64,000 bases of DNA. Source: Promethearchaeota archaeon. GTDB lineage: Archaea; Asgardarchaeota; Lokiarchaeia; Sigyniarchaeales; SOKP01. Both the position numbers and the translations under genes were made by a program. Positions 5,980 to 43,866 of this stretch are shown here, in pieces (the first letter of the stretch is position 1; every line of letters starts with the position of its first letter). The notes beneath the pieces are model-generated. The model saw only the letters and a list, made by a program, of their open reading frames with translations, was not told where the DNA came from and did no database searches. The DNA lies in contig JBHLOC010000015.1 in NCBI GenBank assembly GCA_048940925.1, positions 9,021-73,020 of the forward strand. Reading direction: 5' to 3'.

Positions 5980-6756
5980 GTGATAAATTTGAAAAATAAA
6001 GATGTACTCAATTTTTTCATTTCTGAAGCTGAACACCCGTTTTCAGGGTGGGATTTTTCATATATTAATGACAGAGTTGTAAATTCACCTTTAACATGGA
6101 GTTATACTAGCATTATATTACCAGAATTAAGGAAGGCAGAATCCCTTTTAGATATAGGAACAGGAGGTGGAGAATATTTGTCTTCACTTGTACCTTTACC
6201 ACATCATACATGTGCAACTGAAGGATACAAACCTAATATGCCTATAGCAAGAAATCAATTAGAGCCACTAGGAGTGAAAATAGTGTATTGCAAAGATGAA
6301 GAGATGCTTCCATTTGCTGATGAGAAATTTGATTTAGTTATTAATCGCCATGAATCTTATTCTCCCAGGGAAGTTTATAGAATTCTTAAACCTGAAGGAG
6401 TATTTATTACCCAACAAGTCGGAGATAAAAATGATTCAAAACTTAGACTTGTTTTAACCGGTAAAGAGGAATTAGAAGATTTTGTTGAATGGAATTTGGA
6501 GATTGCATCAAATGAATTAGAAGCAAATGGTTTTCAAATTATTGAAGGTTATGAAGATATAACATCGACGCGTATATTTGATGTTGGAGCCATTATCTTT
6601 TATTTTAAAGCTATACCTTGGGAATTGCCGGGTTTTTCTATAAAGAAATATTATAATAAATTGGTTGAAGTTAACGATTACATTGCTGATAAAGGATATT
6701 TAGATTTAGACAATAACAATCATAGATTTTTAATAAAGGTGAAAAAGGCTAAATAA
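5980..6756 (+). CDS. Class I SAM-dependent methyltransferase
   Basis: FSGWDFS, LLDIGTGGGE, LPFADEKFDLVINRH and RILKPEG motifs. Confidence 0.88.
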   Translation: MINLKNKDVLNFFISEAEHPFSGWDFSYINDRVVNSPLTWSYTSIILPELRKAESLLDIGTGGGEYLSSLVPLPHHTCATEGYKPNMPIARNQLEPLGVKIVYCKDEEMLPFADEKFDLVINRHESYSPREVYRILKPEGVFITQQVGDKNDSKLRLVLTGKEELEDFVEWNLEIASNELEANGFQIIEGYEDITSTRIFDVGAIIFYFKAIPWELPGFSIKKYYNKLVEVNDYIADKGYLDLDNNNHRFLIKVKKAK

Positions 6757-6770
6757 AAATGGTGGCCTAA

Positions 6771-7823
6771 TTACGAGGTTTCTAAAGATTTTAAATTAAT
6801 TTTTCCCTTGGAGAGAATTTCTACATAAGAAGGTTGCATATGCTGCCAAGCTCCATCATTTATTATTTCGATTTGTCGATTATGTATGGTGATATTTGAT
6901 ATTCCCTTAAGATGGGAATGCCCATATATAACATGATTTACTTTTGAAAAATCATATTCTTCATCCATCAAGAATTGTGTTATTTCATTAATGTAATAAT
7001 CAGGTTTGCTTGCTCGTTCCCATTTTTTCAATATTCGCATGTTAGCTTTAATTAAATTAAACTCTATGATACTTAATTCTGAAAATAGAGTATCTATTGA
7101 ATCTAAAGACATATTTTTTAGTTTTGCTAAATCTTCTTTCATTTCTTCGAATCTAATAGGTTTTATTTTTCTCCCATTCTTAATTACTTCGTTCCAGAAA
7201 TAATCATAAGTCTCTTTTACTTCAAACTTATTATTAGAAATTAATGATTTCCATATTTGTCCTACAAAAAATCGGTATATACTACTATCAAACTGGTAAC
7301 CATGCGTCATTAAACATTTGAAATCTTGGTTTAAATCTAAATCCTCAACTTTTACAACTTTAAGGGGCTTACTCTCAATTTGCTCTCGCGAATTATACAT
7401 TAAGAGCATATCTTCATTATTCCATTTTGTTAATAATATGTATTGATAGTATAATTCACCATTAAACAATTCATTAAAATTGCTGTGCTTAAATTTATTT
7501 AAAAACTTTCTCTTTCGACGCTCAAACTTCTCATCATAGTCTCCAATAACAGGAATTTCATGATTTCCAAGAACAAAAATTAAATTCATATTATTCTTAA
7601 TTTTAAGTAGTAGAGTGAAAATATCTTGAACTTTTTCCCTTTTTAAAAGAGCAATAGGAGTATCAGTGCATAAATCAATGAAATCCCCTAAAATTATAAG
7701 AGCTTGTAAATCATTACCGAATTCTCCATTAATTATACTTCTTAAAAATTGAATAAATAAATCTCTTTCACAATCCAAAGAACCTAAATGAATGTCTGAG
7801 GCAATTAGTATTTTTGGATTCAT
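6771..7823 (-). CDS. Calcineurin-like metallophosphoesterase
   Basis: SDIHLG, LGDFID, GNHE, THG and GHSH metal-binding motifs. Confidence 0.88.
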   Translation of the reverse strand: MNPKILIASDIHLGSLDCERDLFIQFLRSIINGEFGNDLQALIILGDFIDLCTDTPIALLKREKVQDIFTLLLKIKNNMNLIFVLGNHEIPVIGDYDEKFERRKRKFLNKFKHSNFNELFNGELYYQYILLTKWNNEDMLLMYNSREQIESKPLKVVKVEDLDLNQDFKCLMTHGYQFDSSIYRFFVGQIWKSLISNNKFEVKETYDYFWNEVIKNGRKIKPIRFEEMKEDLAKLKNMSLDSIDTLFSELSIIEFNLIKANMRILKKWERASKPDYYINEITQFLMDEEYDFSKVNHVIYGHSHLKGISNITIHNRQIEIINDGAWQHMQPSYVEILSKGKINLKSLETS

Positions 7824-35641: not shown

Positions 35642-36283
35642 TTGAAGAAAAAGCTTTTTCCAAGAAAAGGTAAAGAAAAAGATGATCTTGTAGCGCGAGC
35701 TAAAAGTCATATTCACAGATTAAATGTAATTAATAGAAACTATAGTAAACGTGCCGAAATAAGTCGTAAAAATGCAAAAATTGCTTTAAAACGGGGTGAA
35801 AAAGATCGAGCTAAGAATTATCTTATTCAATATAAGTCATACAACGCTAAAATAGATCGATCTAATAATATAAGGGCAAAAATAGAACGTCAGATTCAAG
35901 CAATTGAAGAAGGACAGTTAATTAGTTCTACAGGAGATATTTTCAGTGGGATACGAGATGAATTAGAATACATCGCAACTAAAGCATCTCCCGCAAGAGT
36001 AGCTGAAATTGCAGAAGATTCTGAAGCATATGTTGCTGAAATTGAAGAGGCTGCAGATATTTTAGCAGGAGATCCCGAAATTGATCTTGCAATTGATGTT
36101 ACAGATGAATTAAATCAATTAGAAACAGAAATGCTTCTTGATCAAGGAGGTGCAATGCCTGAGGTTCCTTCAGATGATTTGCAATACATACCTGAATATG
36201 AAATTGAAGAGGAACCTGAAGTTAAATCAAAAGAAAAAATACAGGATGAAATCGAAAAACTTCGCAAAGAACTCGAAGGGTAA
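35642..36283 (+). CDS. ESCRT-III Snf7-family protein (Vps20/32/60-like)
   Basis: Basic N-terminal helical hairpin (AKIALKRGEKDRAKNYL), acidic C-terminal half with DELNQLE and MPEVPS, and a terminal IEKLRKELEG helix. Confidence 0.85.
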   Translation: MKKKLFPRKGKEKDDLVARAKSHIHRLNVINRNYSKRAEISRKNAKIALKRGEKDRAKNYLIQYKSYNAKIDRSNNIRAKIERQIQAIEEGQLISSTGDIFSGIRDELEYIATKASPARVAEIAEDSEAYVAEIEEAADILAGDPEIDLAIDVTDELNQLETEMLLDQGGAMPEVPSDDLQYIPEYEIEEEPEVKSKEKIQDEIEKLRKELEG

Positions 36284-36346: not shown

Positions 36347-37360
36347 TTATTTTAATTCATTTAGAGCTTGAACCATATTTTTTACTTTTTTAATAGCTAT
36401 CTTATAACTAATTTTCTCACCAAAAGAATCTTTTAAGGCTAGGAAACCACAATCGGGTTTGATAAACAAATTTTCCTTTCCATATTGTTCTATTGCTTTT
36501 GTTATATATTTTTTAAGAAAATCAACTTTTTCGATATATTCATTAATTTTCCTTCCATTTACACGCGCAAATTTAGACTTTACAGTTCCAAGAGCTAAAA
36601 TTTTGTTATTATCCTCAAGATGTTTTTTAGAAAAAATATTAAAATTATCTTTATTTGTTGCAAATTCATGATCCATTATTTTTACATTTGTTTGTAGAAG
36701 TATATCACGACATTTAGGGCTTATCCTCCCACACACATGAATAGAGGAAATTGATTTTATTTCAGATAAAGATTTATTTAGAATTTCTAAAATAAAATCT
36801 TCAGTGTGAAAAAGCACTTTTCTTCCTATAAACACTCCCAAAAGAGGTTCATCCATAGAAATTATGTCTATACCCATATTATAATATGCTTTTCCTAACT
36901 TTTTCATAATTTCAGCTAATTTTTCTACAATCCAATCTATCATTACTGCTCTAGGTTCTGTAAAGATCCGAGGTTTGATACCCTTAGCAAGTTTACTTTT
37001 TAATATTATTTCAGATGCTAATGTAAATGGTCCTGTCAAACATGCTTTTGTTCCTCTGATCTGTTCTGAAAGCTGTGGTCTTTGTTTAAAGAAATTTTTG
37101 ATGAAATATCCGTATTCTAAAGCTATTGGATCTTTTGGAATTTTAAAATCATCTAAAAGATAAAATTTATCATCAATTTCTTCTAATTGAATAATTTCTT
37201 TTGCTAATGGGGATAAAAATTGAGAAATCATTGAAATTAATTGTGGATAACATGGATAATCAATTCCTATTTGTATTAATTCATTAAATATTTTTATCAT
37301 ATTTTCTTCATTATTAGTTAAAGGCCAACTTCCAACTACTGTAGTAAATGGATTATCCAT
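36347..37360 (-). CDS. Short (catalytic-domain-only) cobalamin-independent methionine synthase-family protein
   Basis: TTVVGSWP, KACLTGPFTL, MDEP and Zn ligands HVC...E...PDCG. The ATG at 37360 is preferred as start. Confidence 0.85.
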   Translation of the reverse strand: MDNPFTTVVGSWPLTNNEENMIKIFNELIQIGIDYPCYPQLISMISQFLSPLAKEIIQLEEIDDKFYLLDDFKIPKDPIALEYGYFIKNFFKQRPQLSEQIRGTKACLTGPFTLASEIILKSKLAKGIKPRIFTEPRAVMIDWIVEKLAEIMKKLGKAYYNMGIDIISMDEPLLGVFIGRKVLFHTEDFILEILNKSLSEIKSISSIHVCGRISPKCRDILLQTNVKIMDHEFATNKDNFNIFSKKHLEDNNKILALGTVKSKFARVNGRKINEYIEKVDFLKKYITKAIEQYGKENLFIKPDCGFLALKDSFGEKISYKIAIKKVKNMVQALNELK

Positions 37361-37443
37361 AAGTATTATATAAATATAATAGAATATAAAAATAGATAAC
37401 ATAAAATATGCTGACTCAGCATAAAATATACTAGGATATAAAT

Positions 37444-39456
37444 CTAAGTATAAAATCTTTTATTATTAAAGTGCTGATTATTTTGTTTAATAGATTCTAA
37501 TTCATCTAAATTATGTTGTAAAGTTTGAATCTTCTTATCTATAAGATAAATTTCCTTGTTCAAATTTCTAAAAGTTCGAAAATAATCACTTTCAGATATC
37601 AAACCTTGGTCAAACTTCTTTTCGAGTTTTTTCAATGTTGTTTTAAGACCATAACGTTCTTTTTCAAATTCACTCATTTTTTTATGATTTTCTTTATCTA
37701 GCTTATAGAGCTTTCTTTTATTCCTAAATGATTTACTTGTTAAGATATCATCGGAATTGAAAAAAGAAGATAAGTGGTTTCTGTTAAATTCTTGGAATTG
37801 AGATTCCTCATTTGGTACCATAGGCTCTTCATTTAAATCTTGTATTTTCTCTAACTTTCTCATAATATTGTGTCGATTATTAATAACATTAAATTGGGTA
37901 TTATATCGATTATTAGGTTGAGGATTATAATTCTGAAATCTGGTTGGGTTGTAAAGATTTTGTATAAAAAATTTGCTCTGATGTTGGTTTTGGGGAATAT
38001 TTTGATTAAAATGATTTCGATAGTTATATAAAGACTCAGGAGATTGAATTATTTCTGGATAACTATATATATTTTCAGGAATAAATTGGTCATTTGGATA
38101 TGAAATCATAGGATTATATAGAATAGGTTGCCTAAAATTTTGGTTATATTGTGAAGTTATTTGAGGATTTATTTGAGGAGTAATATTTTGGCTTTGATTA
38201 GGTTGAAAATTAATACTTTGAGAAATAGGTTTTGTATAATTTTGAAGATTTCCATATCCTTTATTATATTGGCATTTTAAACTGAAAAAAGAATTAATAC
38301 TTTCTTCAATGAAATCTATCAATGTATTTAATTCGAGATCGATTTCCTGAAGATCTTTTGCAGATTTTTTATCATATATAGCAGTTTCATCAAAAGTTCT
38401 TGCCAAAAGAATATATTCAATTACTCTTTTAATTGCTTTTGGAGGGAGTGTAAATTCATATTTCCCATATTCAAACTCAATATACAATTTTTTGAATAGT
38501 TTGCCTTTTTCTTTAATCCGTATTAAATCTTTCACGGGGGCTTTAAAGCTTAATTCTACTTTATTTTTAATTAAACCAAATTCATGAACAAAAGATAAAT
38601 CGAAATTAGTAATAAATAAGATACCTTTTTCTTTCCTATATCTTTCTTCATTATTTAAACCATTAGCTAATCTAGCATGAATGGCATAAACAGGCTTTTC
38701 TTTCTCTGCTAAATTTAGATGTTTTTTAAATTGGTTAAAATAATATCCTATTTTATCAATGAATTTTAAATTTTTTTCAAATGATTCTGTAGTTTCATTA
38801 AAAATTTTAACATTATTTAATACAAAATCATTAATTGAATTATAGCTACGAAGAAGATTTTCAAAAATACCTTCAATAATAGTAATATTCGTGTTAGGTT
38901 GGGCATATATATCAAAGTAATATTCTTTATAAAGGACCAATTGATGAAAATGAGCACTTATTTTGTCGTATAAAGTATTCTGCACATATTGAAAGAGTTT
39001 AAATAGAGCTAATAGTTCTGATTCCATTTTTGGAAAATGATAATATTTAATGGGAGGTGCTCTTGCTTTTTGTATTTTTTGTTGATAATTATACAATGTA
39101 TTAAGAACTTCTCTTAATGGATTAACAAATAAACGTGAATTCTTAATTAATTCTAAAAAAGCTTTTTCTAGTTCTTCTTTTTTCTCATATATATTAATAA
39201 TTTTATGTGAGCCACATTTTGGGCATGATTTTAAAAGTTGGTGATCTTTAACAATATCTTCATTTCCGCAATCCTTACAAATTCTTGTTTTATCAGAATC
39301 AGCAACTTTGATATTTTTTGAATTACACTCTTGACAGCTATAAATTTCAACCTTTTTTTCATGTAGACAATCAGAGCAGCAGCTGGTTCCACATTCTTCA
39401 CAATAGTAAGCTAACTTCACATATCGTTGACAAAAACGACAAATTTGCTCTGACAT
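37444..39456 (-). CDS. Multidomain protein: Cys-rich Zn fingers + coiled region + PH-like domain + N/Q/P-rich linker + steadiness-box-like C-terminus
   Basis: Six CxxC pairs including CEECGTSCCSDC. EKEKPV...KGILFITNFDLSFV PH/GRAM-like pattern. Low-complexity linker. C-terminal LEKKFDQGLISESDYFRTFRNLNKEIY. Confidence 0.7.
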   Translation of the reverse strand: MSEQICRFCQRYVKLAYYCEECGTSCCSDCLHEKKVEIYSCQECNSKNIKVADSDKTRICKDCGNEDIVKDHQLLKSCPKCGSHKIINIYEKKEELEKAFLELIKNSRLFVNPLREVLNTLYNYQQKIQKARAPPIKYYHFPKMESELLALFKLFQYVQNTLYDKISAHFHQLVLYKEYYFDIYAQPNTNITIIEGIFENLLRSYNSINDFVLNNVKIFNETTESFEKNLKFIDKIGYYFNQFKKHLNLAEKEKPVYAIHARLANGLNNEERYRKEKGILFITNFDLSFVHEFGLIKNKVELSFKAPVKDLIRIKEKGKLFKKLYIEFEYGKYEFTLPPKAIKRVIEYILLARTFDETAIYDKKSAKDLQEIDLELNTLIDFIEESINSFFSLKCQYNKGYGNLQNYTKPISQSINFQPNQSQNITPQINPQITSQYNQNFRQPILYNPMISYPNDQFIPENIYSYPEIIQSPESLYNYRNHFNQNIPQNQHQSKFFIQNLYNPTRFQNYNPQPNNRYNTQFNVINNRHNIMRKLEKIQDLNEEPMVPNEESQFQEFNRNHLSSFFNSDDILTSKSFRNKRKLYKLDKENHKKMSEFEKERYGLKTTLKKLEKKFDQGLISESDYFRTFRNLNKEIYLIDKKIQTLQHNLDELESIKQNNQHFNNKRFYT

Positions 39457-39615: not shown

Positions 39616-39909
39616 TTATTTTATTATTTTTACTTTTTTCCCTAAAGCTTGACCAGGAACTCCTGCTTTTTTAAAATGAGCTCTTACCGCACCATTATTT
39701 CCGTGGGAACGTGTAATTACACCTTTTAATTCCTTACCTGAAGGTGTATTCCAAACAACAGTCCTTCCAATAAGTCTATTTGCCTCTTTTCTAGTTTTTA
39801 TATTTTGAAAGACTAAAATACAGTGTTTTGGATGTAGTGTATGACGCCCCCGTTTATAATTTGAAATAACACCCTCCATACCCAGAATATCTAACTTATT
39901 AAACGACAT
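39616..39909 (-). CDS. rpl35ae: 50S ribosomal protein L35Ae
   Basis: YKRGRHT, GVITRSHGNNGAVRAHF and PGQALG. Confidence 0.95.
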   Translation of the reverse strand: MSFNKLDILGMEGVISNYKRGRHTLHPKHCILVFQNIKTRKEANRLIGRTVVWNTPSGKELKGVITRSHGNNGAVRAHFKKAGVPGQALGKKVKIIK

Positions 39910-40081: not shown

Positions 40082-41485
40082 ATGAGAGTAGCTTTTAGTA
40101 AAATTAAACTTACGCCTAAAAATTACGTTGGAATGCCATTAGCAGGTTATACAAGGAAAGATCCTTGTTTAGGAAAATTAGATGATATCTATGCTTATGC
40201 GGTCTTGATTGATCAATCATCAAAATCTAATAAAAATAATATATTATTATTAATTTCAATAGATACTTTAAAGATACCCTTGTCGATTGCGAAATATGTT
40301 AAAGCAAAAATCTGTTCTAACCATTCTAGATTAGATTCTGAGCATATTTTAATACACGCTACTCATACTCATGCCTCTTTCGATCTAACTGGTGAGTTTT
40401 TTTGGCCAGGAGGTACTTTTAATGTGATGAAAGGTATAATGTTTGGGGCAAATAGGAATGAGAGATATATAGTATGGTTTGCTAGAAAGATTACTAAAAT
40501 GGTCGATGAATTATTTAATAAGCTAAATCCATGCATTATTGCTTCGAAGAAGGAAGAATTTAATCCAGATATTGTAATAAATAGGAGACATCCCATAAGC
40601 CATCCAAGACCTCACTTAGGTGTTATAACATTCAGAAGTTTAGATACAAAAGAATTGATTGGTATTATCATTAATTATGCTTGTCATCCTACAACTCTAT
40701 CCTATAAAAATAACAAATTATCAGCGGATTATCCTGGACAAATAATTCATAAAATAGATGAATTAACGAATCGTAGAATTAATACTATTTATTTTAATGG
40801 ACCATCGGGAGATTTAAATCCTATAACTACATGTGGGATAGATTATCCAAAATTAGAAGTTGATAAATCTCTTATATACAATCAACTTGGGACTTATGAA
40901 GATACAATTAGAATAGGAAATTCTATAGCAGAAGCTGCCTTAAAATTAGCTAATAATATTCCAGAAGAAGATTATTTTGATAGTATTGAAATTCAACCCT
41001 ATACAAACTATATCTGGATTCCAATGAAAGATTATAAATATTTTTCGAAAATATGGTTAAAAAACAAGCTAATTTATGTGCTCAAGAAATATTTCTTATT
41101 ATTGGTTGCCAGAGTTAATATACTCAATTCAAATTTCCCAATCTTTATTTTAAATAAGAAGCACTTTGGGATAAAATGTAAAACTCTGATTCAATATATA
41201 AAAATTAAAATAAACAATAAATCCAAATCTAAATATTTTAGTATAATGACCATTCCAGGGGAACTATTTGAAGATATAGGTAAGTTTTTATATAAATATT
41301 CAATTACAGGAAAAAACAATACATACATTTTTCAAAATACTCAGGATTGGATTGCATATTTTTTTCCATTAAAAGAGTATGTCAATGAGGGGGGTTATGA
41401 ACCAATACCGAGTTTTAGCCCAATTTGTGGGCATTATATAAGAAATGAAATGAAAAACCTCATAGATAATATAAAAAATATATAA
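40082..41485 (+). CDS. Neutral/alkaline ceramidase-like amidohydrolase
   Basis: ATHTHAS, NYACHPT, SADYPG, GPSGD, PGELF and EGGYE motifs. Confidence 0.82.
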   Translation: MRVAFSKIKLTPKNYVGMPLAGYTRKDPCLGKLDDIYAYAVLIDQSSKSNKNNILLLISIDTLKIPLSIAKYVKAKICSNHSRLDSEHILIHATHTHASFDLTGEFFWPGGTFNVMKGIMFGANRNERYIVWFARKITKMVDELFNKLNPCIIASKKEEFNPDIVINRRHPISHPRPHLGVITFRSLDTKELIGIIINYACHPTTLSYKNNKLSADYPGQIIHKIDELTNRRINTIYFNGPSGDLNPITTCGIDYPKLEVDKSLIYNQLGTYEDTIRIGNSIAEAALKLANNIPEEDYFDSIEIQPYTNYIWIPMKDYKYFSKIWLKNKLIYVLKKYFLLLVARVNILNSNFPIFILNKKHFGIKCKTLIQYIKIKINNKSKSKYFSIMTIPGELFEDIGKFLYKYSITGKNNTYIFQNTQDWIAYFFPLKEYVNEGGYEPIPSFSPICGHYIRNEMKNLIDNIKNI

Positions 41486-41493
41486 TTTTTAAA

Positions 41494-42660
41494 CTATTGA
41501 ATAATATCTTCAGCTTCCTTCCAAGCCTTTTGATTAATCTTATGTAATTTAGTGATAACGTCTTTTTCGTTAAAATTAGATTCTTGATGTATTATTCTCT
41601 CTACTTTAGATATTAACTCAGATTCTAACCTTCTTATGTTAGGGATGTTTTTACTTGATTTTGATTTATAATGCTTATACCAAAGCCATTCTGGATCAAT
41701 ATTGCCATATGGACCTGGTTTATTATACTTCTGTCCTTCTACGGGAAAAATGTAAGGTTTGTAGATGCTAAGACATGGTAATGTGGTTCCAGTAAACCAA
41801 TGTATTGATTGTTTTTCTTTCCTTAGATGGGAAACTTGAGAACCTGTGGATTCAAATCCTCCATGCATACAAATTCCTGCATCATGTTCTCTAAGAAAAT
41901 TCATCATCATTTCTGGAGTTATGTTTCCTTCATTTTCATTCAAGAGTAGCATACTTTTGCCACCTCGAGATAATGGAGTTGATCTGTCAGGGATATAAGA
42001 TCCTGAAAAAGATACTGCGAAATCAAAATCATTATCATCTTTACAATAACCTTTTTCTATGGCATATTGGATAATCCCCTTTCTACGCATGTCGCCTATT
42101 CCTCTGATTGTAATTCTATTTGATATAGACCTTACATTTTTTACTTTTTCAGTAATCCACCACACGTCGGCAGCTTCTAATACATAGGCTTCTTCTGGAT
42201 CTGCAATTAAAAATGAATTATGATACATCCAACTTGGATCGTCATATGCACACCCTCCACCTTGTCCAAATTTTTCTAATAAATCGATAATTATCTCCAT
42301 CGCTTCTCTTGCAGTTCTACCTCTCTCAAGACCTAACCTTACTAAATCCATTCCTAATAATCCAATATTTCTTAAAGGTTCATATGTATAAACTGCTTCA
42401 TTTCCAATTACAACACCATGTTCATTAGCACCCATTTCTGCGCCCCACATCCACCATGGTTGACTAATTAAGACTGCAGCAGTTTCAGATACTTGAGGAA
42501 TTAATATATATGTGCATTTTACTTCTTCTTTTACTGAATGCTTAGTTCTTGGGGCATAGGTTATCAATTGAACTTCATTTGAAGGGCGATCTGAATTTTT
42601 ACCAAAAACTACACTTCCATCCTTAGTTGAATTTCCAAACGCAACGAGAGTGTCACACAT
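41494..42660 (-). CDS. Peptidase C69/secernin-like Ntn-hydrolase
   Basis: N-terminal MCDT nucleophile, FGKNSDR, WMWGAEMGANE and LLGMDLVRLGLER. Confidence 0.9.
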   Translation of the reverse strand: MCDTLVAFGNSTKDGSVVFGKNSDRPSNEVQLITYAPRTKHSVKEEVKCTYILIPQVSETAAVLISQPWWMWGAEMGANEHGVVIGNEAVYTYEPLRNIGLLGMDLVRLGLERGRTAREAMEIIIDLLEKFGQGGGCAYDDPSWMYHNSFLIADPEEAYVLEAADVWWITEKVKNVRSISNRITIRGIGDMRRKGIIQYAIEKGYCKDDNDFDFAVSFSGSYIPDRSTPLSRGGKSMLLLNENEGNITPEMMMNFLREHDAGICMHGGFESTGSQVSHLRKEKQSIHWFTGTTLPCLSIYKPYIFPVEGQKYNKPGPYGNIDPEWLWYKHYKSKSSKNIPNIRRLESELISKVERIIHQESNFNEKDVITKLHKINQKAWKEAEDIIQ

Positions 42661-43866
42661 TTATTTGATTAATTCCTCTGCTTTATTCCATCCATAATCA
42701 TTAACCATTCTAATAAATTTATTGAATTCATTTTCTGAGATACTATCTTCCTTATTAATTATATCATCTACACGTCTTAATAATTCATTCTCTACACTTC
42801 TTAACTTACTATAATAATTATTCCTCTCAGGAATATCTTTTTTAGGTCGTTTTTTTAAGATATTAATATATTCAAAGTGCTTTATCCAAAACCAATCCGG
42901 ATCTTTAGATAAATAAGGCCCAGAGTCCATAATATATTGTTCTTCTACTGGAAAAGCATAGGGTTTATAAATACTTAGGCATGGAATGGTACTACCTGTA
43001 AACCAATGTATAGATTTCTTATCGTTTTTTCTCAAAAGAGAAACTTGAGATCCTACTGATTGATCTTTTCGAGTATGTCTGCATATTCCAACTTCATGAT
43101 CTCTTAAAAACTCCATCATCATACCTACTGTAATTTTTCCTTTATTAGATGATAATTGATGCAATGAACAACCATCTCTATCAGTTATAGGGAAAGTCTC
43201 TGGAAGAGGAGAAGGAGAAAAGATCATTTTAAAGTCAAAATCATTTTCATCCTTACAATATCCCTTTTCAACGGCATGTTGGATAATTCCTTCTCTTCTC
43301 TCATCTCCTTTACCTCTTATGGATATATGATTCGATATAGAACGATATTCATTGACTAATTCCATAATCCACCAATCTCCTGCGGTTTCTAGCACATAAG
43401 CTTCTGTTGGATCTGCTATAATATATGAATTATGGTAATTCCACTGATCCAAGCTATGAAAACCACCTTGCCCATATTTTTCTATCAAATCAGTTATTAC
43501 ATTTAAAGCTTCTTTTGCGGTTTTACTTCTTTCTAATCCTAGTCTAAGAAGATCCATACCAATGAGGCCTATTTCTTTCAAAGGTTCTTTTGTTTGTACT
43601 GATTCGTTGCCTATAGCAACATTATACTCATTGACACCCATTTCTGCACCCCACATCCAATAAGGTTGACTTAAAATAATAGCGGTAGTCTCGGTTTCTT
43701 GAGGAATAGTAATATGAGTACACTTTACCTCTTCCCCTAGGGCAAATGTTCTTCGGGGAACATATGTCAATAATTGGATCTCTGATTCAGGACGATCACT
43801 ATTTTTACCAAAAATTACATTTCCACCTTTAGACCAATTTCCTAAACTAACGTAAGTGTCACACAT
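42661..43866 (-). CDS. Peptidase C69/secernin-like Ntn-hydrolase (tandem paralog)
   Basis: MCDT, FGKNSDR, WMWGAEMGVNE and GMDLLRLGLER. Its stop abuts the next ATG. Confidence 0.9.
   Translation of the reverse strand: MCDTYVSLGNWSKGGNVIFGKNSDRPESEIQLLTYVPRRTFALGEEVKCTHITIPQETETTAIILSQPYWMWGAEMGVNEYNVAIGNESVQTKEPLKEIGLIGMDLLRLGLERSKTAKEALNVITDLIEKYGQGGFHSLDQWNYHNSYIIADPTEAYVLETAGDWWIMELVNEYRSISNHISIRGKGDERREGIIQHAVEKGYCKDENDFDFKMIFSPSPLPETFPITDRDGCSLHQLSSNKGKITVGMMMEFLRDHEVGICRHTRKDQSVGSQVSLLRKNDKKSIHWFTGSTIPCLSIYKPYAFPVEEQYIMDSGPYLSKDPDWFWIKHFEYINILKKRPKKDIPERNNYYSKLRSVENELLRRVDDIINKEDSISENEFNKFIRMVNDYGWNKAEELIK

Follow-up and report, generated by a model that had tools for sequence, protein, structure and literature searches.

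In eukaryotes, the modules that are united in the Asgard archaeal protein family Znr_CC_PH_SB are divided among ESCRT-0, ESCRT-I and ESCRT-II, and Asgard ESCRT-I-like proteins bear on the origin of the eukaryotic ubiquitin-ESCRT sorting pathway. The family (also named Znr_PH_CC_SB) is asCOG cog.011556 (Makarova et al. 2024, mBio, PMC10936438), with a published domain order of three Zn ribbons, a helical or coiled-coil region, a PH domain and a steadiness box (SB) (PMC10936438). In Lokiarchaeum GC14_75, its gene, listed at 1953 nt, occupies the neighbourhood PepD-L35Ae-gene-MetE-Vps20 (Table S2, PMC10936438). A literature search on the family name returned only Makarova et al. 2024 and its preprint, and no experiment on any Znr_CC_PH_SB member was found in the literature searched. 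The architecture and likely role of the family are already in the literature; the window analysed here (the whole stretch of DNA, 64,000 nucleotides) adds three things only: one more orthologue, a passing in-silico contact between SB and a Vps28-like protein, and a quantified, phylum-deep linkage to one ESCRT-III paralogue.

Family membership and gene neighbourhood

The 670-residue protein encoded in the window (Table 1) is a member of the Asgard-specific Znr_CC_PH_SB family (asCOG cog.011556) and has 261 full-length Asgard homologues (50-85% identity). Its orthologue P0079 from the Loki's Castle sediment metagenome (650 aa, 59% identity over the full length), which bears the UniRef name 'SB domain-containing protein', agrees in length with the 1953-nt cog.011556 gene (Table S2, PMC10936438). 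The listed gene lies between L35Ae and MetE/Vps20, and the arrangement in the window is the same. The present analysis establishes the family membership of the protein, its domain architecture and the homology of its SB to Vps23/Tsg101-type steadiness boxes, and Znr_CC_PH_SB is likely an ESCRT-I-type adaptor. The original prediction, made from the sequence alone, had read the domains largely correctly, yet the novelty that it implied does not hold, because the family, the domain order and the ESCRT-I assignment have been in print since 2024; its idea that one polypeptide combines membrane-targeting and ESCRT-I assembly modules agrees with the published proposal of a union of membrane or cargo modules with an ESCRT-I assembly module (PMC10936438).

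Table 1. Features of the Znr_CC_PH_SB gene and its ESCRT-III neighbour (positions in the window).
Feature	Residues	Positions	Strand	Basis
ESCRT-III (Snf7-family) paralogue, convergent neighbour		35642..36283	+	Pfam Snf7, E 3.8e-10
MetE-like gene between Snf7 and the 670-aa gene		36347-37402		
Whole gene, Znr_CC_PH_SB family protein (P0001)		37444..39456	-	Intact ORF, 670 aa + stop
Zinc module, six CxxC pairs, three predicted Zn sites	1-88	39193..39456	-	Invariant cysteines, AF2 beta-hairpins
Three long helices ('CC' of the published family name)	89-247	38716..39192	-	AF2
PH/GRAM/GLUE-type domain	248-355	38392..38715	-	AF2 fold, VIA-align
Conserved helices packed after the PH domain	356-400	38257..38391	-	AF2 helices 357-400
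N/Q/P/Y-rich linker, variable length, conserved islands	401-571	37744..38256	-	Composition, alignment
Basic helix, SB hairpin, conserved tail NFDxKRFYT	572-670	37447..37743	-	Profile searches
SB core	591-639	37540-37686	-	Pfam Vps23_core, sub-threshold

The stop codons of the gene and of the Snf7-family paralogue are 1161 nt apart with the MetE-like gene between them, matching the originally noted distance of about 1.2 kb with one intervening gene, and the Lokiarchaeum counterpart of this paralogue is annotated as Vps20-type (Table S2, PMC10936438). Linkage to an ESCRT gene, which the original prediction put forward for checking, is conserved: of the 68 Lokiarchaeia loci that could be tested, 67 have the Snf7 paralogue within 2.6 kb of the family gene, an orthologue of the same paralogue adjoins the family gene in three distant lineages too, and in Jordarchaeia the adjacency persists although all other neighbours are different. 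No Snf7 gene is near the gene of the distant family member P0168, and the other ESCRT-III paralogue stays with Vps4 and Vps25. An unrelated L35Ae gene on the opposite side is nearly as conserved (71 of 76 loci), so part of the synteny may have no functional meaning and simply reflect an inherited order of genes; the Snf7 gene and the 670-aa gene are convergent and therefore not co-transcribed. That the family gene is paired convergently with one and the same ESCRT-III paralogue from Lokiarchaeia to Jordarchaeia is a modest addition of the present work, and the quantification of this linkage could guide interaction experiments.

This pairing, together with the retention of the other paralogue beside Vps4 and Vps25, would suit a direct route in which the protein recruits or nucleates the adjacent Vps20-type ESCRT-III paralogue itself, in a Bro1/ALIX-like bypass, instead of acting via Vps28 and ESCRT-II. 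The convergent gene orientation weighs against such a route, as does the modelled contact of SB with the Vps28-like protein described below, which points to a classical ESCRT-I contact, and direct recruitment is considered improbable.

The zinc module, helical bundle, PH domain and linker

The protein begins, as predicted, with six CxxC pairs (at residues 6, 19, 27, 41, 60 and 78), in which all 12 cysteines are invariant among 25 homologues; the pairs are kept also in distant relatives of 21-30% identity, and are enough for three four-cysteine sites. AF2 models the module as beta-hairpins (pLDDT 70-87). Modelled alone (pLDDT 71), it gave no significant fold match with Foldseek against pdb or with VIA wide: all matches were weak (Foldseek E at least 0.19; VIA Z at most 4.5) and of zinc-ribbon type, with B-box/RING rows only marginal (Z about 2). 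The Pfam matches of the module (Zn_Ribbon_TF, DUF5817 and zf-B_box) were likewise sub-threshold.

The FYVE fold consists of a cross-braced two-zinc site and a C-terminal helix, and its PI3P pocket is formed by the motifs WxxD, R(R/K)HHCR and RVC. The N-terminus had been labelled FYVE-like, with a FYVE/RING-like fold match expected, and the CxxC-G-x3-C-xx-C spacing of residues 19-30 (in the segment YYCEECGTSCCSDC, residues 17-30) is also seen in FYVE fingers, while eight cysteines could in principle make a cross-braced two-zinc site. Nevertheless, a FYVE-type finger with an ESCRT-0-like (Hrs/Vps27) action by PI3P binding is very unlikely, being contradicted at the level of motifs: WxxD, R(R/K)HH and RVC are all missing from the 670-aa sequence, among them the basic motif whose absence had been noted originally. 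Pfam FYVE (PF01363) does not match the protein at E ≤ 1, no FYVE domain is among the fold matches listed for the isolated module (Foldseek pdb, VIA wide), which weakly resembles zinc-ribbon-like modules only, and 7 of 59 scanned distant matches of the family's C-terminal profile (see below) carry zf-B_box instead. The FYVE-like label is not supported.

The AF2 model of residues 1-405 (pLDDT 83, pTM 0.73) comprises the Zn hairpins, three long helices (89-132, 144-181 and 191-247, with pLDDT mostly above 80) and a PH fold of seven strands (255-336) followed by a helix (342-353); in the region that follows (356-400), the block IEExINSFFSxKCxYN is invariant in the alignment. A PH/GRAM-like segment had been placed at 38400-38705 (residues about 251-352), and both AF2 and VIA-align bear out a PH fold there, with matches of Z 11.6-13.4 and rmsd 2.2-3.5 A overall. 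The best is 4tyz_A (Z 13.4); named PH/GRAM domains include the PH-GRAM domain of MTMR2 (1lw3, Z 12.9, rmsd 2.2 A, 102 residues aligned) and Lam6 (5yqr, Z 12.8). The GLUE domain of Vps36/EAP45 (2hth_B) scores Z 11.6, a value that other PH/GRAM domains equal or exceed, so that a relationship to GLUE in particular is not shown. Pfam bPH_3 or GRAM is matched by distant members of the family. Five lysines of the PH domain (K275, K297, K299, K322 and K323) are conserved, a pattern that is compatible with the binding of an acidic ligand and is not evidence for it.

The top Foldseek matches of residues 1-405 are the RhoGEFs Vav1, Tiam1 and Dbs (E about 1e-5), which would suit a reading of the helical bundle and PH domain as a DH-PH-type guanine-nucleotide exchange module. 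TM-scores are just 0.2-0.3, however, three long helices do not look like a DH fold, and Pfam RhoGEF is not matched. Since the rmsd is 8-20 A where alignments span the helices, and a good superposition is confined to the PH part, the matches are put down to a likeness of architecture, and an exchange module is extremely improbable.

The predicted N/Q/P-rich linker is evident from composition, N, Q, P and Y together making up 48.5% of residues 401-571 versus 19.5% of residues 1-400 and 19.2% of residues 572-670. The linker is indel-rich in the alignment of homologues, with conserved islands FFxQN...NPNRxQNY (about 496-510) and NHLSxLF (560-566).

The C-terminal steadiness box and its predicted partner

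Scanned over its whole length, the protein had no more than sub-threshold matches in Pfam and NCBIfam. Vps23_core (PF09454) matched with E 0.096 and 13.1 bits in the scan of the protein and with E 0.02 and 17.4 bits in the scan of the whole genome, of which the SB of the 670-aa protein is the best match, and the gathering cut-off of 26.8 bits was not reached in either. The full-length family profile found yeast Vps23 as its top match among PDB sequences at only E 0.22, and the homology had to be traced transitively, starting from a sub-profile of the C-terminus. The C-terminal profile matched 104 proteins among 1.8 billion representatives; 59 of these, of about 150 aa or longer, were scanned with Pfam, yielding Vps23_core in 28, UEV/UQ_con in 8-9, SHOCT in two and CdvA-like domains in two. 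One match, P0200 (E 1.7e-5), carries UQ_con/UEV and a Vps23_core above the cut-off (28.6 bits), and its own best match in this genome is the SB of the 670-aa protein (E 8.8e-6). The SB of the family aligns with that of Asgard UEV-Vps23 in hhalign (98.6%, E 1.3e-15), and the UEV-Vps23 SB profile in turn reaches yeast Vps23 (2caz_A, 1.1e-4), TSG101 (6vme_B, 5e-3) and VPS37B (0.034) in the PDB. No second SB protein was found in this genome by the C-terminal profile at E ≤ 1.

These profile searches argue that the C-terminal hairpin is a genuine steadiness box, not merely a generic coiled coil or SHOCT. They uphold the original alignment by eye of a C-terminal peptide (residues about 603-644) with the Tsg101/Vps23 steadiness box; a match to SHOCT or coiled coils alone, named at the outset as an outcome that would count against it, is not what was obtained, Vps23_core (below threshold) and the SB of UEV-Vps23 both being matched. 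The contrary reading, that the hairpin is generic and SHOCT-like or coiled-coil, the protein unrelated to ESCRT and the Snf7 neighbour mere inherited gene order, draws on the sub-threshold Vps23_core score, the two SHOCT and two CdvA-like proteins among the profile matches, the conservation of L35Ae beside the gene and the convergent orientation of Snf7. It is nonetheless unlikely, given the significant profile-profile link to UEV-bearing Vps23 and via this to yeast Vps23 and TSG101, the agreement of the reciprocal best match of P0200, the lack of any Pfam SHOCT match to the 670-aa protein at E ≤ 1 whereas Vps23_core is matched, and the adjacency of the same Snf7 paralogue in Jordarchaeia despite otherwise different neighbours.

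The genome also encodes a Vps28-like protein, P0227, on contig 3 of the assembly, as well as EAP30/Vps22-like, Vps25-like and Vps4 proteins and a second Snf7. The 670-aa protein has no Pfam match to UEV or UQ_con; when the genome was searched with Pfam UEV there was likewise no match, but the control genomes of the family gave none either, hence absence is not demonstrated. The UEV half of P0200 gave only weak matches in the genome, to short E2-like ORFs. Complex modelling with the Vps28-like protein of the genome, also proposed originally, predicted a contact between residues 1-105 of that protein and the SB region (572-670) with ipSAE 0.70, compared with 0.02 for the best control; among reference cases, 58 of 80 solved complexes attain the pass mark, as do 2 of 110 mismatched pairs. 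The runs agree in at least 91% of contacts, the pLDDT of the partner is at least 81, and the predicted interface on SB is residues 622-641. The pass may reflect solved ESCRT-I headpieces (2F66, 2CAZ, 2P22 and 6VME) that the model has memorised, and it speaks of likeness, not of binding.

Proposed role and comparison with known ESCRT systems

Taken as a whole, the evidence is best explained, with good confidence, by a Znr_CC_PH_SB member whose architecture is as described above and whose role would be that of an ESCRT-I-like adaptor. According to the complex model, SB would dock on the N-terminal helices of the Vps28-like protein, giving an ESCRT-I-like headpiece, and contacts to membrane and/or cargo, possibly ubiquitin, would come from the PH domain and the zinc ribbons. 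Znr_CC_PH_SB would then stand in for the UEV-bearing Vps23 subunit and act as the upstream adaptor that feeds ESCRT-II/III, with the convergent ESCRT-III paralogue next door as a candidate downstream partner. A more far-reaching and rather doubtful proposal is that Znr_CC_PH_SB and the convergent Vps20-type paralogue form an ancient two-gene module, extending from Lokiarchaeia to Jordarchaeia and separate from the Vps22/Vps25/Vps4 cluster, in which one polypeptide that both recognises membrane or cargo and bears an element of the ESCRT-I headpiece directly seeds its own ESCRT-III filament, and serves as the main Vps23-type subunit where, as here, no UEV-Vps23 fusion is detected.

Compared with the published Znr_CC_PH_SB, the domain order, the Asgard taxon and the neighbourhood in Lokiarchaeum GC14_75 are all the same, and there is no substantive difference, the copy in the window being 670 aa long with a somewhat different linker. 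Like Hrs/Vps27 of ESCRT-0 with its FYVE domain, the protein starts an upstream ESCRT adaptor with a cysteine-rich CxxCGxxxCxxC module, but it is without the PI3P-binding motifs, a Pfam FYVE match, or VHS or UIM domains. It resembles Vps36/EAP45 of ESCRT-II as an ESCRT protein in which a PH-type fold and zinc fingers occur together, but it has no winged-helix domains, and its zinc modules are N-terminal, not inserted in the PH domain. From Vps23/Tsg101 of ESCRT-I, including Asgard UEV-Vps23, it differs in its N-terminus, where zinc ribbons are followed by a helical bundle and a PH domain and there is no UEV, and in having a low-complexity linker where Vps23/Tsg101 has a proline-rich region and a long stalk; it shares with them the homologous C-terminal SB hairpin, whose modelled contact with the N-terminus of the Vps28-like protein resembles the ESCRT-I headpiece of Vps23/Tsg101.

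Gene, neighbours and relatives

The Znr_CC_PH_SB gene (SB, steadiness box) lies in AT-rich sequence (window GC ~27-32%) and is an intact open reading frame. All of the sequence features of the original prediction are present: six CxxC pairs (residues 6, 19, 27, 41, 60 and 78; YYCEECGTSCCSDC, residues 17-30, is within this region), an N/Q/P-rich linker (N+Q+P+Y make up 48.5% of residues 401-571 versus ~19% of the rest of the protein), the quoted C-terminal peptide, and a Snf7 neighbour.

Features of the Znr_CC_PH_SB locus in the window
Feature	Position	Strand	Remarks
Snf7-family gene	35642-36283	plus	Pfam Snf7 E 3.8e-10
MetE-like gene	36347-37402	minus	neighbour of Znr_CC_PH_SB gene
Znr_CC_PH_SB gene	37444-39456	minus	670 residues
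Conserved tail NFDxKRFYT	37447-37480		residues 660-670
Linker islands FFxQN..NPNRxQNY and NHLSxLF	~37756-37971		residues 496-510 and 560-566
Ribosomal L35Ae gene	39616-39909		other flank of Znr_CC_PH_SB gene from Snf7
467-aa open reading frame	40082-41485	plus	between L35Ae and C69 peptidases
Tandem pair of paralogous C69-type (PepD-like) peptidase genes	41494-43866	minus	388 and 401 aa; same flank as L35Ae

The 467-aa open reading frame keeps its position in many Lokiarchaeia loci, and its orthologue in locus L012 has a faint match to neutral/alkaline ceramidase (PF04734).

Searching 5.8 billion proteins gave 261 homologues; every one of the 120 matches listed comes from an Asgard MAG, nearly always at full length, with 50-85% identity to the target. 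NCBI names some of them 'B-box zinc finger protein', and a 650-aa orthologue from the Loki's Castle sediment metagenome (P0079) is an 'SB domain-containing protein' in UniRef. In a 25-sequence alignment, the 12 cysteines of the CxxC pairs are all invariant, and long invariant blocks also fall within residues 88-400 and 599-637. The linker, otherwise variable and of low complexity, contains conserved islands, and the protein ends in a conserved tail; judged by sequence, islands and tail may be short linear binding motifs. Distant relatives retrieved with a C-terminal profile (476-836 aa, 21-30% identity, one from Jordarchaeia) have exactly six N-terminal CxxC pairs, as the target does. Two shorter proteins, P0164 (222 aa) and P0187 (235 aa), have no parts beyond a PH (bPH_3/GRAM) domain and a C-terminal stretch that matches the SB profile (P0164 also has a Pfam Vps23_core match, P0187 does not); without zinc ribbons and helical bundle, they therefore represent the family in a minimal form, PH plus SB.

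Zinc module, PH domain and steadiness box

The PI3P pocket of FYVE domains is formed by the motifs WxxD, R(R/K)HHCR and RVC, none of which was found in the target sequence, and Pfam FYVE gave no match to it at E <= 1. The zinc region instead matches Zn_Ribbon_TF, DUF5817 and zf-B_box of Pfam and an FmdB-type ribbon of NCBIfam, all weakly; zf-B_box also occurs in seven of 59 C-terminal-profile matches scanned. Modelled alone (pLDDT 71), the module has weak fold matches only (Foldseek E >= 0.19, VIA Z <= 4.5), and these are of zinc-ribbon type (ribbons of Rpb2, TFIIE-alpha and Rpb12, tRNA-synthetase zinc inserts and ribosomal ribbons). The proposed FYVE-like finger was rejected on these grounds, although the first eight cysteines may pair either sequentially or in a cross-brace.

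An AF2 model of residues 1-405, built with an alignment (pLDDT 83, pTM 0.73), consists of short beta-hairpins to residue 88, three long helices (89-132, 144-181 and 191-247), a seven-stranded sandwich (255-336) with a helix cap (342-353), and more helices to residue 400. The predicted PH fold, located where the original prediction had placed it, is well supported because residues ~238-355 superpose in VIA-align on PH-type domains: PH-GRAM of MTMR2 (1lw3, Z 12.9, rmsd 2.2 A, 102 residues), the PH-like domain of Lam6 (5yqr, Z 12.8), and the GLUE domain of EAP45/Vps36 (2hth_B, Z 11.6). The top Foldseek matches were DH-PH RhoGEFs, at an rmsd of 8-20 A and TM-scores of 0.2-0.3; the fit is confined to the PH part, and a DH-PH assignment was rejected. 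We read this ranking as probably reflecting a PH domain preceded by long helices, not a DH domain.

At the C-terminus, Pfam Vps23_core matches residues 591-639 (13.1 bits, E 0.096), which is weak taken alone; in a whole-genome scan this match is the genome's best (17.4 bits). The full-length family profile placed yeast Vps23 on top in the PDB, but at E 0.22. A profile of the family's last 99 residues (A2), searched against 1.84 billion representatives at E <= 1e-3, matched 104 proteins, and the 59 of ~150 aa or longer were scanned with Pfam: 28 contain Vps23_core, 17 bPH_3, nine GRAM, nine UQ_con, eight UEV, two SHOCT and two CdvA. One match (E 1.7e-5), the UEV-Vps23 protein P0200 of a Lokiarchaeota MAG, combines UQ_con/UEV with an above-cut-off Vps23_core (28.6 bits), and its best match in the source genome is the target hairpin (E 8.8e-6). 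The SB regions of nine short matches to A2 (221-264 aa, most with UQ_con/UEV and/or Vps23_core) form a second profile, A7, to which A2 aligns with 98.6% probability (E 1.3e-15) and which in turn matches yeast Vps23 (2caz_A, 1.1e-4; 2p22_A, 2.1e-4), human TSG101 (6vme_B, 5e-3) and VPS37B (0.034). Because this chain leads to Vps23 and TSG101, not to SHOCT or coiled coil alone, the hairpin is, on profile evidence, a true steadiness box, as had been proposed by eye.

Linkage to ESCRT-III and predicted contact with Vps28

The proposed ESCRT linkage holds across and beyond the class. Among 80 Lokiarchaeia loci from species-representative genomes, which are not independent observations because all come from one class, 68 extend at least 2.6 kb downstream of the gene, and 67 of these have Snf7 within 2.6 kb, always convergent. 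It is directly adjacent in 30 loci (23-166 nt between gene ends) and separated by a MetE-like gene in 37; of the 76 loci testable for L35Ae, 71 have it upstream. The distant members carry more weight than this single-class set: in Jordarchaeia (P0214, 21% identity) a convergent Snf7 again comes next and every other neighbour is different, and two others have L35Ae, the family gene and then a convergent Snf7 with a 4-nt overlap. In these lineages the Snf7 beside the family gene is orthologous to that of the window (28-41% identity), and the Snf7 paralogues of the Vps4 cluster form an orthologous pair of their own.

This neighbouring paralogue (L099:7555-8190, L101:8493-9134 and L102:7908-8540 in the distant loci) keeps a C-terminal (M/L)PEVP-like segment and a terminal ELxKLRKEL helix; the other remains with Vps4 and Vps25. 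Next to the distant member P0168 (555 aa; L100, contig JAHPZH010000002.1, ~6001-7668) lie a ribophorin-I-like gene and a Roadblock-Arf/Ras-type GTPase fusion, and no Snf7 is nearby; P0168 is possibly a paralogue that belongs to another trafficking context.

The source assembly (4.8 Mb, 90 contigs; tool-reported completeness 100%, contamination 8.4%) encodes the core ESCRT cluster (EAP30/Vps22-like, Vps25-like, Vps4 and a second Snf7) on another contig and a Vps28-like protein on a third. No UEV-SB fusion was detected in the genome, by a search unable to demonstrate absence. An 801-aa frame with a Vps28 C-terminal-type match (G000:C86:28508-28777, L001, 24.7 bits) may belong to the multidomain Vps28_C fusions that have been reported from Lokiarchaeia.

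Residues 1-105 of the Vps28-like protein and SB residues 572-670, both given as alignments, were modelled in three runs with three controls. The complex reached an ipSAE of 0.70 in the three runs versus 0.02 for the best control (of 80 solved complexes, 58 reached the mark, as did two of 110 mismatched pairs), with at least 91% of contacts in common and partner pLDDT of at least 81. Residues 12-28 and 37-45 of the Vps28-like protein face the second SB helix (622-641), which includes conserved F626, N631 and Y637. The predicted contact shows likeness to the ESCRT-I headpiece, not binding, because ESCRT-I headpieces have already been solved.

Comparison with the published family

In the literature searched, no other paper naming the family was found, and experimental papers on Asgard ESCRT-I cover UEV-Vps23, Vps28 and free-standing SB proteins, not Znr_CC_PH_SB. 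Makarova et al. (PMC10936438) described Znr_CC_PH_SB as 'a likely ESCRT-I component' whose PH domain 'is expected to be membrane associated'. In the paper's supplementary table, the cog.011556 gene of Lokiarchaeum GC14_75 is 1953 nt long and lies between L35Ae and MetE, flanked by a C69 dipeptidase (PepD) on one side and a Vps20-type ESCRT-III gene on the other, an order that the window shares. The PH domain, steadiness box and ESCRT linkage of the original interpretation stand, but its FYVE domain does not, and the whole finding is a re-derivation of a published family. As far as we have seen, what goes beyond that description, modestly and in silico, is a quantified, phylum-deep pairing with one ESCRT-III paralogue and a passing SB-Vps28 contact model.
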